In this document: positions 9,787-23,838 of the stretch, piece by piece
How the letters are laid out: each line of letters opens with the position of its first letter
Position numbering within the stretch: position 1 is the first letter of the stretch
From: Synechococcus elongatus PCC 6301
GTDB taxonomy: Bacteria > Cyanobacteriota > Cyanobacteriia > Synechococcales > Synechococcaceae
Length of the DNA: 32,000 nucleotides
Assembly: GCF_000010065.1 (NCBI RefSeq)
Contig: NC_006576.1
Span: 1 to 32,000, forward strand
Reading direction: 5' to 3'
The notes under the pieces: model-generated
What the model was told of the DNA's origin: nothing
Seen by the model: the letters and a program-made list of their open reading frames with translations, nothing else
The model's database searches: none
Program-made: the position numbers and the translations under genes

Positions 9787-10342
9787 CTCTTGGGAACTAG
9801 ATCCATCCCGTATACGCATGACTTAAAGAGTGCTTGAGTAGAGCTTTCTCTCACCTTTAACAGACAATTTTCCTAGAAAAAACACACTCAATACATTGCC
9901 ATTGATGGACTATTCACCTGACTCATGCTTCCTAAGTCTAGGGATCTCGATGGCAGGGAACTCTATGGTGTGGATAGAGGGCAAGTGAGAGTCGATAGCC
10001 GGATTCTCAGTACTAGTTTAAAAAAGTCTCAATGATCTTTTCTCCCCTGCCGAGGCCAAGGGCTGATTGAGACCATTCAGCAGAAAACTGTACAGCAAGT
10101 AGAGGGTTATAGAGGACTTGTTACAGCATCCAACACTCCTGCTGTTCCCTGAGCCCTTAATCCCTTCTCTCCACGGGGGAAGGTGTTCTTCTGACCCCTG
10201 GACCTGTCCTAACTCATTAGCCATGAGCAAAATAAAATCCGGCCAAGGAGCTGCTAACCACTCAGGGCTAGCCATCACTCCTTAACCGGATTGTTGAAAC
10301 AGACTTAGCACGATCGCGGATTAATGCGATCGCTTCAGCTCA

Positions 10343-12227
<1,885 letters not shown>

Positions 12228-17253: not shown

Positions 17254-17928
17254 ATGCTGCGATCGCTATTGCGAGGACTTCGCCGTCGTTGGTCTTGGCA
17301 TCAACCCGCTTGGCGCGCCCGGTTTTACCAGTGGCTCTACCCGCAGATTCAGGCCGATCGTGTCGGCCGCCACCTGCAGCTCAGCGGTGAGGAGCGGATT
17401 TGGATTGCCCCGGGCTGCATCATTCACGATGAGGTAGAGCTCGTTGCAAAAGCAGGAGCCCGTATTCGCATTGGCCCAGGCTGCACCCTCTATCCGCGCA
17501 CTAAACTCTTGGCCTATTCAGGCGATCTCGTGCTGGAAGGGGATGTCTCGGTGAACTCCTTCGCGATCGTGTTTGCCAACAGCGGAACTAGCATTGGACG
17601 CATGACCCGCATCGCCTCTCATGCAGTCATCAACCCGACAGAGCATCGCTACGATGATCCCACCCGCCCAATTGATGACCAGCCCATTTCCAATCGACCA
17701 GTTCAAATTGGTGCAGACTGCTGGATCTGTACGGCAGCGATCGTTAGGGGGGGGACCCAGTTAGGCGATGGCAGTATCGTAGGAGCCCAAGCTTTAACGA
17801 GGGGAAGCTATCCAGCAGGGTCCGTCCTCGTTGGATCTCCAGCACGAATTCTGAAGCAACGCACAGTGTTGGCTGATCCGACGCAGCAACAGACGAGCCT
17901 AGCGATTGAGCATCAGGATGCCCTCTAA
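17254..17928 (+). CDS. Hexapeptide-repeat (left-handed beta-helix) O-acetyltransferase, WcaF/Maa-like
   Basis: AAGGAGG lies 8 nt upstream of the ATG. Hexapeptide repeats are visible in IGPGCTLYP..., IGRMTRIASHAVI and IGADCWICTAAIVRGGTQLGDGSIVGAQALT. Confidence 0.85.
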   Translation: MLRSLLRGLRRRWSWHQPAWRARFYQWLYPQIQADRVGRHLQLSGEERIWIAPGCIIHDEVELVAKAGARIRIGPGCTLYPRTKLLAYSGDLVLEGDVSVNSFAIVFANSGTSIGRMTRIASHAVINPTEHRYDDPTRPIDDQPISNRPVQIGADCWICTAAIVRGGTQLGDGSIVGAQALTRGSYPAGSVLVGSPARILKQRTVLADPTQQQTSLAIEHQDAL

Positions 17929-18243
17929 GAAGCTGTTGCATAGGAAAGGTGAAGAGGGAGCCATTACTCACGGGACTGTCGCTGGATGATCTGAAAGCTG
18001 GCCTCTTGGGCAGAAGCCGTCCATTCTCTCGGAGCGATCGCTGCTTGGCGACGACTTGCAGCGATCAGCTTGAGTTTGATCATTCCCTCGTTACGCTGAA
18101 GGCATGGTCAAACCCCGAGCTTTTCTCTACATCGGAGACTGCTGTTACTGCTTGTTTGCCAACGACTATCCCATGCAGTTCTGTTTGGCACGGGGCACAG
18201 CACCAGAAGGCGATCGCTGTCTGAACTTTCGCTCGATGCATAA

Positions 18244-18546
18244 GTGGCTCTTGAAAAAGTAAAGGCCCGTTGTCCACGTTTAAGTCTGGATTCTTTGGGC
18301 ATTAAAGCTGGAGATACTCTTACTTGTTCACGAGATGAGGCGCTCACCGCTACTGTTGTCAGTGGAGGCAAAGTTGATTTTCAAGGAGAAGTTCTTAGTC
18401 TTTCAGCCGCTGCCCTTAAAGCTCTTCATGGTGTTGGTTATAAAACATCTGCAGCAAGTGGTTCAAAGTATTGGATGTTTGATGGTGAATTGCTCAATGA
18501 AAGGCGCCGTAATGTAGAGTTAGATCAATTTTGTAAAATTATATAA
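18244..18546 (+). CDS. Small hypothetical protein, 100 aa
   Basis: GTG start, AT-rich. The segment VDFQGEVLSLSAAALKALHGVGYKTSAASGSKYWMFDGELL loosely recalls small domains attached to restriction- or defence-associated proteins (DUF4357-like). That assignment is unverified. Confidence 0.45.
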   Translation: MALEKVKARCPRLSLDSLGIKAGDTLTCSRDEALTATVVSGGKVDFQGEVLSLSAAALKALHGVGYKTSAASGSKYWMFDGELLNERRRNVELDQFCKII

Positions 18547-18579
18547 AGCAATGTCTAGATAGTAGTGTATCTGATTTAA

Positions 18580-18625
18580 TAATGCCCCCAAGATGACTGT
18601 GTAAGTCTATTCCCGAGGGCATTTT
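18580..18625. terminator. Candidate bidirectional hairpin terminator between convergent genes
   Basis: AATGCCC (18580-18586) pairs with GGGCATT (18616-18622). There is a partly paired interior (GACT/AGTC), and the stem is followed by TTTTT on the plus strand. Confidence 0.35.
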
Positions 18626-18668
18626 TACGCACGAGCTAGGGGCATCCCGCTATAGCTTAATTGCTCGA

Positions 18669-18830
18669 CTAGGCGTAAGCAGCTCCTATCATTTCGTCGT
18701 TAGAAACTAATCCCTTCTTGACTAGCTTTTCGGCGAGTGCTAGAAGTAAAGCTGCTTTCCGCTCATCTCCACAACGAAGAGCTTGTTTGCGTTCAGAAAT
18801 TAACTCGAAGTAGTAGTATCTCTTTGCCAT
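18669..18830 (-). CDS. Small protein, 53 aa (paralogue A)
   Basis: Below the ORF-track cutoff. AAGGAG lies 8 nt upstream of the ATG at 18830. Translation: MAKRYYYFELISERKQALRCGDERKAALLLALAEKLVKKGLVSNDEMIGAAYA. It is 72 percent identical to the neighbouring 53-aa ORF. Confidence 0.6.
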   Translation of the reverse strand: MAKRYYYFELISERKQALRCGDERKAALLLALAEKLVKKGLVSNDEMIGAAYA

Positions 18831-18943
18831 TCTTTCTCTCCTTGTTTGACCATCAAAACATCTGTAAAATTGATGAGAAATCTAAAAAGTTAGAGCTAAT
18901 CCTTTAATCATGACTTCACATTAGAAGAGATCACCAAAGAATT

Positions 18944-19105
18944 CTAAATATAAGCACCTGCTAACAATTCATCATCAGAGACCAAGTCTTTCTCGACTAG
19001 CTTTTCAGCCAGTGCTAATAGTAATGCTGCCTTTCGTTCATCCCCACAGAACAGAGCCTGCTTCCGTTCAGCCATTAAATCAACGTAGGAATATTTCTTA
19101 GCCAT
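18944..19105 (-). CDS. Small protein, 53 aa (paralogue B)
   Basis: Below the ORF-track cutoff. GAGAGG lies upstream of the ATG at 19105. Translation: MAKKYSYVDLMAERKQALFCGDERKAALLLALAEKLVEKDLVSDDELLAGAYI. The 18-residue core is identical to paralogue A despite 9 synonymous nucleotide differences. Confidence 0.6.
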   Translation of the reverse strand: MAKKYSYVDLMAERKQALFCGDERKAALLLALAEKLVEKDLVSDDELLAGAYI

Positions 19106-19150
19106 CGGTATGACCTCTCTGGTAAATGAATAATTGGATATTAGATCTTA

Positions 19151-19657
19151 TCAATCGATTTGACTGGGTAATGCCTCTAGTAGATCAATCAAGAAAGTAG
19201 TGACGGTTTCATCTTGATCCAGCTGAAGGGTGCCAGTCTCTAGACCCTCTAGGTAATTCACCAGATCATCACGATTAACAATTACAGGCGTCAGCTTTTG
19301 CTCGTAAAACCACCGATTGACTAACCCCTCAAAACGAAGTCTGAGGACTTGTTTTTCTGCAAGAGCTTTCTCTTGGTTCAGTCTTTCAATCTCATCTTCT
19401 AACTCTTTGACACGGTCGTTCTCTTCTTTTTTAATCCTGGGTCGCCCCCGCTTTCGAGGCTTTTCCTCAGAGTCCTCTAGGTCTTGGAAGTCACCATCGC
19501 CTCGGAAACGCCTGTTTCGATCTTCCATCTCTTCTAGAACAGACTGCGCGACTTCTTCGATTTCAGCATCACTGAGCAGGTCTCCAACCCGCTCTTTGGC
19601 CATATTGATTAGCTCTTGCAGCTCTTGGTTTCTCTCGAGGTCTGATTGTTGTGTCAT
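19151..19657 (-). CDS. Acidic coiled-coil protein with a central AT-hook-like motif, 168 aa
   Basis: The ATG at 19657 is preceded by AGGAGATACCCT. The translation MTQQSDLERNQELQELINMAKER... contains KPRKRGRPRIKK flanked by Glu/Asp-rich heptad-like sequence. The longer track ORF (to 19882) overlaps the upstream gene and has no ribosome-binding site. Confidence 0.6.
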   Translation of the reverse strand: MTQQSDLERNQELQELINMAKERVGDLLSDAEIEEVAQSVLEEMEDRNRRFRGDGDFQDLEDSEEKPRKRGRPRIKKEENDRVKELEDEIERLNQEKALAEKQVLRLRFEGLVNRWFYEQKLTPVIVNRDDLVNYLEGLETGTLQLDQDETVTTFLIDLLEALPSQID

Positions 19658-19769
19658 AGGGTATCTCCTGTTTCTTGAATGGATAGTTTGGATCATCGAG
19701 ATCCAATTGTGATGTGTTTGTGCTTGAGAAAAGTGACTGATTCCTTCTTTGAATTGAATAAAATGAGGG

Positions 19770-20665
19770 CTAAATGCTGCGATTGAAAAGTTTCTCTGCC
19801 AAAGTTTGGAAGCGATCGCTATCTTGTAATCCTGCAATCCAGTCATCAGGGATTGCTTCGAGCCCGTAGTGGGCACCCGCAATCTGTCCTGCGATCGCTC
19901 CCACGGTATCGGAATCTTCGCCCAGATTCACCGCTGCGAGTAAGCAATCTGCAAAGGATGTGGTGGTTCCAAATGCCCAGAGAGCAGCTTCCAAGGCATA
20001 GAGGGCATGACCCTGAGCGCGGATGTTTGTCGAGGTTTGCCAACTACCTCGAACCACTTCCACAATCTCAGCATCAGGATGTTGATACCAATGCCCTGAA
20101 AGCAAGTCTGTCTTTGACTCTCCTTGCAAGGCTCGAACCAGTAGCTCGGCAAAGTATCCCGAAAGAGCGATCGCTTGGGGATGACGATGAGTCGTGACGG
20201 TACTCTGTTGAGCTAAGTCAATGGCATCGGCAATATCTTGGTTGGACCAAATGGGAATCGGAGCCATCCTCATCAGAGCGCCGTTTCCCAGAGCATTTAA
20301 GCCCCCTGCTTCAACTTCCCCTGTCCTGAGGTAATGACTGAGAGCAGAGTGAGTGCCATTACCAATGTCAAAGCAATCGCCGATGACCGAGTTTTCGCCG
20401 TGTTGCCACCAACGACAGTAGCGATCGAGGTTATCTTTTAAATCCAACTTGCCGCAGGCCAGAAGTGATTCTGCGAGACATAAAGCCATGGAAGAATCAT
20501 CTGTCCATTGACCGGCTTTGAGGTTGAAAGGCCCGCCATCGCGATAGCCGGTAATCGGTTCAAAAGATCAGGCTTTTGAAACTCAACAGGTGCACCGAGT
20601 GCATCGCCGATGGCAAGACCAAGGAAACAGGCTTGGGCACGAGACAGTTGTGTGATTGATGACAT
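19770..20665 (-). pseudogene. ADP-ribosylglycohydrolase (ARH/DraG family) interrupted by a 1-nt frameshift
   Basis: The N-terminal frame reads MSSITQLSRAQACFLGLAIGDALGAPVEFQKPDL. The C-terminal frame continues FEPITGYRDGGPFNLKAGQWTDDSSMALCLAESL... to the stop at 19770. The two join if one extra T is added to the TTTT run (plus-strand AAAA, 20562-20565). GAGAGGTGGAG precedes the ATG at 20665. Confidence 0.8.
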
Positions 20666-20752
20666 CAACTCCACCTCTCAATGAAAAGCTAGCAATGATT
20701 ACGTTGAGTCGCTGAGGTTTCAGATCTCTATCAGGACTCGCAATTTAAGAGA

Positions 20753-20782
20753 GCCACCTAGTGGCGATCGCCACTAGGTGGC
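20753..20782. repeat. 30-bp perfect palindrome centred on a HIP1 site
   Basis: GCCACCTAGTGGCGATCGCCACTAGGTGGC is its own reverse complement. It lies about 90 nt upstream of the ARH start. Confidence 0.95.
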
Positions 20783-20967
20783 GTGACAAGTCACAATTGC
20801 GCAGTCTTAAAACAGAAAGCTCAACACAGTCAGGAAGTTGCAAAAATTCTGTCAACACTCGCTAAGAGGTGACTTTGCTCAAATCGAGCATTGCGGAAAG
20901 GGTTGTTCATGGTCTTCAGACTCCCTGAAGTTATACGCAGCACCTCGATTGGTTGCCACTACATAAG

Positions 20968-20995
20968 TTTATATCAAGCGCAATCATCTTGTCAA
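20968..20995 (-). promoter_or_regulatory. Near-consensus sigma-70-type promoter candidate facing the ARH gene
   Basis: The minus strand reads TTGACA (20995-20990), a 16-nt spacer, then TATAAA (20973-20968). This would give a ~300-nt leader containing the 30-bp palindrome. Confidence 0.3.
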
Positions 20996-21658
20996 CCCCT
21001 CCAGTTTTATGCTGAGTCGCGGATTATCCGTTGTTCGTTGCCGAGCCCTTGAGCATGGTGGAGTGGCAGTGCGATCGCGCAACTGCTCCGTCACGGTGAG
21101 AGGCCGTATCCTCATAGAGATCTAGTTCGACCTCTGGAAGACACTTTTCAGAAAATAAAATACTCTCGTTTCTAGAAGCTTAGGCTCACTACAATGAAAG
21201 GCAAGAAGAGAGTTTCCAGCAAATGGGATTGTGATGGTTTAGTCCTCATTACCGTAGAAGGGAAGAGACTTCGACTGGGTGTGGATGAGGCTGATGATGA
21301 GATCCTTGATGATGAAGAGAATGTTATGAAATCTGAGGATCAGTCTGAAATTTTGAGTCACGAGAAATCAAGCGAGGAATAATCCTGAGAAATCGGATAC
21401 TCCCAATAAAATGACCACAGAAGAGAAAAGAATGATTGACTTAGACTATGATCGCTGAGTTAGTGATGACTATGATGCTGTGATTATAGATTATGATAGT
21501 AATAGCGTTTAGCTCATGAAAGAGACAGAATATATTGCCTCTAAAAACAAGAAGCAGAGAAAAGAGGGAAGCTAGATAGCTGTTATAAAAAAGAATTGAA
21601 TCTACTCGACTCGCTAGACCTTCATCTGCACATAAGGAGACTCTGCTAGCAGTAGCTC

Positions 21659-21886
21659 TTAATAGAGGATGTAGTTCTCAATCTCTACCTTTCGACGCTT
21701 GATGCGCCATTCATGACCACAACTCAGGCATTGGCGCTCTGGATCTTCCCAGCCAATACAGCAACCGCCTAAGGCAATCTCTTGTCGCGCAGCCATTTCA
21801 AACGCCTCAGGTGTAGGCATACCATAGAGGATGTTGACGCCGGTTCTTTGCTTGCAAACAGGACAAATATACTTTTTTGAACTCAT
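21659..21886 (-). CDS. Small zinc-ribbon protein, 75 aa
   Basis: Two CxxC pairs are present (CPVCKQ and CLSCGH). AAGGAGGATG lies upstream of the ATG. The segment is AT-rich. Confidence 0.6.
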   Translation of the reverse strand: MSSKKYICPVCKQRTGVNILYGMPTPEAFEMAARQEIALGGCCIGWEDPERQCLSCGHEWRIKRRKVEIENYILY

Positions 21887-22064
21887 TCAAGACATCCTCC
21901 TTGACTGACGACCTTTACAAGTTATATCTGTCTCACGAAAGCGAAGAGGCTTTCTGGGGTAGAACAGAAGTGAGAAATTACTGTCTCTAATCCATGAGAA
22001 ATCCGCTGTATCCGATGAACATAAGGTATTCAGTGATAGCCGCGATCGCAGTTCCTAGCCTTGA

Positions 22065-22481
22065 CTAGACCACCATCTCTTTGCCGTGCTCATGAATCGC
22101 TTCCAGAGGAATCGACTGGAAAAATCGGGTGCCTAGAACTAAGTTCTTTTTCGTCAGCCCACCTTTCAAGTAGAAACTATAGTCAAAGAGCAGCGTGTCA
22201 TATTCCGTGAGAGATGCACGTACAAATGCATACTCATCATTAATCTTATTGGCCAAGTCAAGCTTTTGTTCTCGACTGAATCCCTCTTCAAACTCGAAGA
22301 TAGTAAATATCATGATTCTTGTTTGATTCTCGGAAATCATGACAGTACAGTTCAGCTCATCTTTGATCTTGAGATCTCCGTCGTCGTCCCATGCTGTTTC
22401 AATAAAAGCTGCATCATAGATTGCTTTGAGTAAGTCTTTGGAGACGTTATCGGGCGTAATCAAGTCGTTAGTCAGCATCAT
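22065..22481 (-). CDS. YbjN-like (type III secretion chaperone-like fold) protein, 138 aa
   Basis: The ATG-ATG at 22481/22478 gives MMLTNDLITPDNVSKDLLKAIYDAAFIETAWDDDGDLKIKDE...FDYSFYLKGGLTKKNLV. The pattern and length fit the YbjN family. The track start at 22535 is a TTG 18 codons upstream. Confidence 0.6.
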   Translation of the reverse strand: MMLTNDLITPDNVSKDLLKAIYDAAFIETAWDDDGDLKIKDELNCTVMISENQTRIMIFTIFEFEEGFSREQKLDLANKINDEYAFVRASLTEYDTLLFDYSFYLKGGLTKKNLVLGTRFFQSIPLEAIHEHGKEMVV

Positions 22482-22539
22482 GGTCGTTAAGTTTGGGGGG
22501 TAGGTGTGATCGTGGAATCCATCAAGGGCGGTCAAAGCT

Positions 22540-23766: not shown

Positions 23767-23838
23767 AGCGGGCGATGGGACTCGAACCCACGACGTTCAG
23801 CTTGGGAAGCTGACATTCTACCACTGAATTACGCCCGC
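23767..23838 (-). tRNA. tRNA-Gly (anticodon CCC)
   Basis: The minus strand is GCGGGCGTAATTCAGTGGTAGAATGTCAGCTTCCCAAGCTGAACGTCGTGGGTTCGAGTCCCATCGCCCGC plus a discriminator base. It folds as a cloverleaf: 7-bp acceptor stem, D arm ATTC/GAAT, anticodon stem TCAGC/GCTGA with loop TTCCCAA, and T arm GTGGG/CCCAT with TTCGAGT. CCA is not encoded. Confidence 0.95.

Follow-up and report, generated by a model that had tools for sequence, protein, structure and literature searches.

Two tandem 53-codon frames of Synechococcus elongatus PCC 6301 probably encode members of a mainly phage-borne small-protein family

Short open reading frames that belong to no named family are easily passed over. The window, a stretch of 32,000 nucleotides of the Synechococcus elongatus PCC 6301 chromosome, contains two such frames in tandem, copies A and B, which have been singled out from the sequence for the purifying-selection signature that their comparison seems to carry. 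The locus raises the question of whether these frames are genes at all, to which family their products belong, from where they have reached the chromosome, and on which partner they may act. The features on which the following argument is built have been collected in Table 1.

Table 1. Features of the islet around the two 53-codon frames, with window coordinates.
Feature	Position	Strand	Description	Basis
Small-protein gene, copy A	18944..19105	minus	53 codons, ATG start, pI 4.9	ORF and profile match
Small-protein gene, copy B	18669..18830	minus	53 codons, ATG start, pI 9.2	tandem paralogue of A
Shine-Dalgarno box GAGAGG	19114..19119	minus	8 nt 5' of copy A ATG	read from sequence
Shine-Dalgarno box AAGGAG	18838..18843	minus	7 nt 5' of copy B ATG	read from sequence
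Upstream partner gene	19151..19657	minus	168 aa from ATG, pI 4.5	conserved acidic domain in N-terminal 50 residues (alignments A3, A5)
ADP-ribosylglycohydrolase (ARH) gene, split in two frames	19770..20674	minus		PF03747 matches both pieces
PDC-S57 fragment	18244-18546	plus	100-aa ORF convergent on copy B	PADLOC E 1.4e-22
Strong hairpin	18581..18623	.	~50 nt past copy B stop	RNA fold z-score -2.8
Sigma-70-like promoter candidate TTGACA-18-TAAACT	20966..20995	minus		consensus scan, 10/12 positions
tRNA-Gly(CCC)	23767-23838		low-GC stretch runs up to tRNA	

Coding signature of the two frames

The original prediction started from two tandem frames of equal length, each with a Shine-Dalgarno sequence, and rereading of the sequence has recovered both frames on the minus strand, with ATG starts and with boxes at suitable places (Table 1). 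The 38 of 53 shared residues have been reproduced as well, as BLASTP reports 38/52 identities, which equals 38/53 over the full length because A and B differ at their final residue. An 18-residue core (codons 20-37, CGDERKAALLLALAEKLV) is the same protein in both copies, and the recount has returned exactly the nine synonymous and zero non-synonymous differences that had been claimed for it, at codons 21, 23, 24, 25, 27, 29, 30, 32, and 33. Over the whole length, the Nei-Gojobori method has yielded 24.5 synonymous differences at 36 sites (pS 0.68) and 17.5 non-synonymous differences at 123 sites (pN 0.14), corresponding to a dN/dS of 0.088, so that the two classes of change are clearly not balanced. 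Indeed, when the 42 differences have been placed at random, none of 5000 trials (0/5000) has given as few non-synonymous changes as the 17.5 observed, the random mean being 30 and the random minimum 19.5. A six-frame check has found the synonymous excess together with the lack of stops only in the annotated frame, the other five frames containing 1-8 stops each. The flanking DNA of the two copies does not align, so the conservation is confined to the coding parts, and since an Rfam scan of positions 17500-22500 has produced chance-level matches only, this conservation is not attributable to a known RNA.

Judged by these substitution patterns, the view that A and B are genuine protein genes under selection and belong to no named family is supported, and we regard it as nearly certain that they are coding genes of the ~50-aa family described below, although part of the selection signal may have accrued inside a phage or mobile element. 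The further claim that the frames are invisible does not extend to gene callers, as the exact sequences of both A and B are present in a predicted-protein collection, on about 400 contigs or assemblies. The papers located on small proteins of cyanobacteria make no mention of the two copies. Within the genome, which consists of one contig of 2,696,255 bp, A and B are the only copies of the family. Their net charges are opposite (Table 1), the differences being concentrated at positions 19, 38, 40, and 44, which could reflect different partners or a heterodimer of A and B.

The small-protein family and its predicted fold

Close relatives of A and B, 72-84% identical, have been found as one copy in a congeneric species (G053) and in three metagenomic loci (L003, L004, and L005). 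Among five close sequences, all ten pairs have shown saturated synonymous sites (pS 0.68-1.1) at a low pN of 0.09-0.21. A profile search of 1.84 billion representative proteins has given 25 matches, nearly all of them 49-58 aa long and aligned end to end, and the family has been tallied at about 25 clusters at 50% identity, with 28 members used in the family scans. A homologue search had been proposed as a check on the coding claim, and the reading frame has turned out to be kept in every relative recovered, namely in G053, the three metagenomic loci, the about 25 clusters, IMG/VR viral contigs, and cultured cyanomyoviruses. Both copies align over their full length to the family (alignment A2), whose consensus reads x-S-x-Y-v-e-L-M-x-x-R-K-x-A-L-x-x-G-D-E-x-x-A-...-G-x-V-S-D-D-E-x-L-A-A-A-Y-[IL]-COOH, and belong to it by Y7, L10, R14, G21, A26, V42, and the C-terminus ...AY[IL]. 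Against a four-sequence profile they have scored E 1.7e-34 (A) and 4.7e-34 (B), values that are circular because this profile includes A and B themselves; independent support for the family is given by the 25 outside proteins, which have been recovered at E up to 5.9e-16, and by the columns that are conserved in alignment A2. The cysteine that had been described as conserved is common to A and B only, its place being taken by R, K, E, Q, T, or V in the relatives.

The statement that the proteins fall into no named family has held in the searches of Pfam, NCBIfam, and PADLOC, none of which has a match to A or B. The phage protein group phrog_3582 has been weakly matched by 18 of the 28 family members (best E 1.6e-06), copy A reaching E 0.14 (13.4 bits) and copy B giving no match. 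In tblastn searches of cultured phages, copy A, the proteins P0003 and P0008, and the member from the viral contig L017 have found no match, and cyanophages have been reached only by the longer queries of the G222 and MC09 type. A pattern scan with alignment A1 has returned nothing from genome contigs and one weak locus from viral contigs. Fused forms longer than 218 aa have been searched for and none has been found, which is weak evidence. A distant relative of 73 aa in G222 (L007, 56-1995) ends in ...EEEILGAAYL and stands directly after a 460-aa gene and is followed by a 110-aa ORF. Taken together, the family consists of unnamed, soluble proteins of ~50 residues that are mainly phage-borne.

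The helical character that had been predicted for the two proteins has been borne out by modelling, as AlphaFold with the family alignment has folded copy A into three helices (H7-20, H23-38, and H44-51) at a pLDDT of 91.8. The model resembles, and no more than resembles, one TPR-like helical hairpin with the turn motif G-D-E-x-x-A, followed by a C-terminal capping helix, which in the family ends in the conserved ...AAY[IL]-COOH. Fold searches of the PDB, BFVD, and VIA wide have produced only generic three-helix or TPR-like matches (Foldseek E >0.7, VIA Z <=6.4), with TPR-containing chains among the weak ones (Foldseek E >2, VIA Z 5.0-6.2), and the ESM Atlas has given no match at or above 0.8. 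In the comparison of the family profile with PDB sequences, single or consensus TPRs have appeared at E 0.002-0.03, and the N-terminal TPR of PICH (5jno_B) has been picked both by this search and by Foldseek, where it has ranked fourth. Pfam TPR models have no match to A or B and have matched only 2 of the 28 relatives, at E 0.03-0.05.

Small adjacent genes on a mobile islet, as the two copies and the acidic ORF upstream of them are, might also be taken for a toxin-antitoxin module, or the small proteins for a Nif11-type precursor or leader peptide, and the C-terminus ...DDELLAGAYI does loosely recall what we take to be the acidic end of Nif11 leaders, a likeness that serves as a lead only. 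Yet no toxin, antitoxin, or Nif11 model of Pfam, NCBIfam, or PADLOC has matched at E up to 0.1-1, and A, B, and the acidic partner alike match no model of a toxin-antitoxin system or known defence component. A leader would further be expected to carry a Gly-Gly cleavage site and a core peptide, but the window proteins end in ...AYI or ...AYA without either, and the conserved C-terminus is the protein end in every member. There is no maturase or transporter nearby, and the model is a compact, confidently folded domain. We consider the toxin-antitoxin and leader-peptide readings effectively excluded.

Gene neighbourhoods in phages and in the islet

In the phage loci whose gene order has been read, the small gene is linked to genes for kinase-like proteins. 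In metagenomic loci (L010/L011/L012 and L015), its start overlaps the stop of the kinase-like gene or lies within few bases of it, and on IMG/VR viral contigs of 35-150 kb (L017, L020) the small gene likewise follows such a gene. One of these contigs (L017) carries two kinase paralogues of 402 and 786 aa, each of which is directly trailed by its own small paralogue. The loci of two cultured cyanomyoviruses, MC09 and S-CREM2, have been read and show the small gene directly 3' of the kinase gene, the MC09 member reaching a profile E of 6.6e-09 and S-CREM2 gp13 an hhalign probability of 92% (E 5.6e-07) against the family. The gene in front of gp13 is gp14, annotated 'APH-like serine/threonine kinase (virion protein)'. 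This linkage is conserved, and since the phage loci are related to one another it does not amount to many independent observations; the locus L003, where the small gene is preceded by an 85-aa ORF and a metallopeptidase-like gene and not by a kinase, is an exception. The kinase-like genes keep the invariant Gly-loop G, the VIK Lys, the Glu, and the HxDxHxxN and DFG residues, and their profile has matched 72 PDB protein kinases and their model at least 500 kinase chains, while the individual kinase matches score below the Pfam gathering thresholds.

The S-CREM2 gp14 protein has been reported as a virion-associated kinase, and Table 3 of the virion proteome lists ORF13 (10310-10546) with 1 unique peptide and 11.5% coverage, beside ORF12, ORF14, and ORF15 (PMC10665884). 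By its coordinates, ORF13 is the small-family member. In the MC09 record (PP110486.1; L022, 2863-3102), the label 'serine/threonine kinase' has been attached to the 79-aa CDS WVQ00791.1, which is the small partner protein, and it is the 674-aa CDS immediately before it, annotated as hypothetical, that is kinase-like. The phage neighbourhoods also hold a zincin-like peptidase, SNase-type nucleases, and several proteins with a common N-terminal Cys motif. This motif of ~40 residues occurs in at least five proteins, namely the 422-aa and 290-aa proteins and the 402-aa and 786-aa kinases of L017 (338-8776) and a 211-aa protein of L014, and may represent a shared module by which virion-carried proteins are targeted or packaged.

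In the S. elongatus chromosome, the two copies belong to an islet with a GC content of 0.44-0.49 vs 0.55-0.58 in its flanks, and HIP1 sites, which occur at a mean of 2.7 per kb in the genome, are lacking over the 1.6 kb between 18210 and 19812. As had been described, both copies are preceded on their own strand by the AT-hook ORF and, farther upstream, by the ARH gene. The ARH gene itself is broken, its pieces 20438-20674 and 19770-20489 corresponding to PF03747 positions 1-30 and 54-287, and the 100-aa ORF that converges on copy B, which aligns with the candidate defence protein PDC-S57 over ~90 C-terminal positions only (117-207 of 212), looks like a truncated relic of it. By these two marks, the islet is decaying. 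ARH has also been considered as a conserved partner of the small gene and has been rejected, as it has no match in G053 or G222. The hairpin past copy B is followed by a T-run on the plus strand and is probably a bidirectional terminator for copy B and the convergent ORF, although the consensus terminator scan did not call it; on the other side, the promoter candidate of Table 1 is the best sigma-70-like match upstream of the string ARH, partner, A, and B. A zinc-ribbon gene with four Cys residues (21659-21886, minus strand, 75 aa) has a 73%-identical homologue (L023, 12-242) ~5.5 kb from the G053 module.

The island contig of G053 has only the small-gene module and the zinc-ribbon gene in common with this genome. 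The nearest outside relative, P0003 (83% identical), lies in a phage-type module, and its downstream neighbour has homologues in the kinase loci, again behind the small gene. It is highly probable that A and B are of phage or mobile origin.

Upstream of copy A, the place that a kinase holds in phages is taken by an acidic ORF. Its core ELQxLIxMAKxRVGDxLSDxEIxEVAxSV is found in the window and in its relatives, which are ~65 residues long; the window protein carries an AT-hook and a C-terminal region in addition. Every chromosomal relative, G053 and L004/L005 as well as the window locus, has the acidic ORF in front of its small gene. A sample of 401 cyanobacterial genomes has yielded clear acidic-domain matches (E about 1e-30) only in the two that carry a clear small gene as well; the acidic and the small-gene profiles have each given one further weak match, in different genomes. 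The viral and JGI metagenome contig scans have brought no match to the acidic partner, and PADLOC, Pfam, and NCBIfam hold no toxin, antitoxin, or defence model that fits it. A homology with the C-terminal tail conserved among the phage kinases has been rejected (hhalign probability 0.2%). With pN 0.18-0.25 vs pS 0.53-0.78, the substitution counts indicate that the acidic domain is under purifying selection. In L004 (436-3168), the next gene after the acidic partner and the small gene encodes a DnaJ-domain protein for which membrane segments are predicted, and behind it comes a 510-aa CARF-HEPN (Csx1/Csm6-like) protein (PADLOC E 2.2e-136).

Given such surroundings, A and B may be suspected of being an inert relic that has arrived with a phage or mobile element, whose selection signature dates from a phage past and whose frames are intact owing to their shortness. 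Two ORFs of 160 nt in a decaying islet could indeed stay intact by chance for some time, and the state of the islet, AT-rich, free of HIP1 sites, and with ARH split and PDC-S57 reduced to a fragment, is what this reading would lead one to expect. It is likewise favoured by the G053 island, which has almost nothing else in common with this genome, and by the genome itself, where homologues of the phage kinase, the metallopeptidase, and the ~200-240-aa downstream protein of the phage loci (L003, L014, L017, L020) have not been found. However, both copies have kept good Shine-Dalgarno boxes and ATG starts, and their exact sequences recur on the about 400 assemblies mentioned above. Furthermore, the acidic partner and the small gene have stayed paired in three lineages, where synonymous sites are saturated and pN is low in the small gene and its partner alike, from which it follows that the kinase-free module itself is under selection. 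On balance, we hold the inert relic to be unlikely.

Proposed role and comparison with known systems

The account that we prefer treats A and B as three-helix genes of a phage type that have become island cargo and whose products serve as a binding subunit of the upstream gene's product, and to this account as a whole we assign a probability of roughly 0.6. In phages, the family member is the gene right after, and often overlapping, a truncated virion-type Ser/Thr-kinase-like gene, with one small gene per kinase paralogue. The window copies are carried by an islet that is AT-rich and HIP1-free and extends to tRNA-Gly(CCC); the kinase has not been found in this genome, and in the host lineage the small gene is paired with the acidic upstream protein instead and has duplicated. 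The mini-protein might act as a protein-binding subunit, be it a regulator, a chaperone, or a packaging adaptor, of whatever the upstream gene encodes. That it binds the upstream product physically we infer from gene order alone, and we propose it tentatively, at somewhat below even odds; any activity in this host is likewise presumed.

The kinase linkage also admits a bolder thought. If the phage protein restrains its cognate virion kinase, as the one small gene per kinase paralogue on a single phage contig would allow, then kinase-free host copies could neutralise kinases injected by cyanophages, with acidic A and basic B covering two specificities in the manner of the orphan immunity genes of polymorphic-toxin loci. 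The host copies do stand without any kinase, they form a tandem pair of paralogues with opposite charges (pI 4.9 and 9.2), and defence-type genes adjoin the chromosomal relatives, namely the PDC-S57 fragment here and the CARF-HEPN protein in L004. This support is purely contextual, though, and defence islands take up foreign DNA of all kinds; moreover, the conserved acidic partner has no place in the model and no PADLOC family is matched. That the kinase-free copies and their acidic partner form a host-held device for capture or inhibition of injected phage kinases, made from a stolen phage regulator, is therefore improbable in our estimation, less likely than the inert relic and at the same time more interesting; if true, it would be an anti-phage defence of the 'orphan immunity' type built on a phage regulator.

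What has been gained for the preferred account of a binding subunit is, in the first place, that two unannotatable 53-codon frames have been placed in a small-protein family that can be defined and whose predicted fold is confident, and that phages with one small gene behind each virion-kinase gene provide a genomic rule that can be tested. Virion-associated kinases have been repeatedly reported from cyanophage proteomes; to our knowledge, their regulation and targets are unknown, and a dedicated small partner, if there is one, would open a way to both. In S. elongatus, a genetic model organism, the kinase-free chromosomal version with its acidic partner could be used to tell domesticated from passenger mini-proteins. 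The two copies also offer a worked example of how small genes may be called from the substitution patterns of paralogues and orthologues.

Among known groups, phrog_3582 has a profile of 46 positions that is similar in length to the small-protein family and has been aligned over the same region; it is made up of phage proteins, and its PHROG entry carries neither function nor context. As regards the fold, the predicted structure resembles the N-terminal TPR of PICH/ERCC6L (5jno chain B) and consensus-designed TPRs in its helix-turn-helix, its small-residue turn G-D/N-x-x-x-A, and its capping helix. TPRs are protein-binding modules that occur in arrays, whereas the family has one stand-alone repeat, and all TPR matches are statistically weak.

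The kinases upstream of the phage members keep their catalytic residues and have a short post-DFG region, in which they resemble the truncated kinases described for phage 'polyvalent proteins' (Iyer et al., 2017; PMC5512222). With a zincin-like peptidase and nucleases nearby the phage small-gene loci recall the loci of polyvalent proteins also in this respect (PMC5512222). The likeness to polyvalent-protein kinases and to cyanophage virion kinases (PMC5512222; PMC10665884) is a feature of the neighbour gene and not of the window genes, as A and B do not stand behind a truncated kinase gene and such a kinase has not been found in the genome. The nearest counterparts in cultured viruses are the small ORFs of the cluster-C T4-like cyanophages, S-CREM2 gp13 and its homologues in MC09, S-H34, S-N03, S-B68, and S-CRM01. 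These are 75-79 aa long, carry ~30 extra residues as a charged N-terminal tail, and are placed between virion proteins of a lytic myovirus, whereas the window copies are 53 aa long, duplicated, chromosomal, and without a kinase. The position right after a kinase gene is common to the cluster-C ORFs and the metagenomic phage loci, and the C-terminal 47-48 residues of these ORFs align with the family up to the shared ...AAAYL end.
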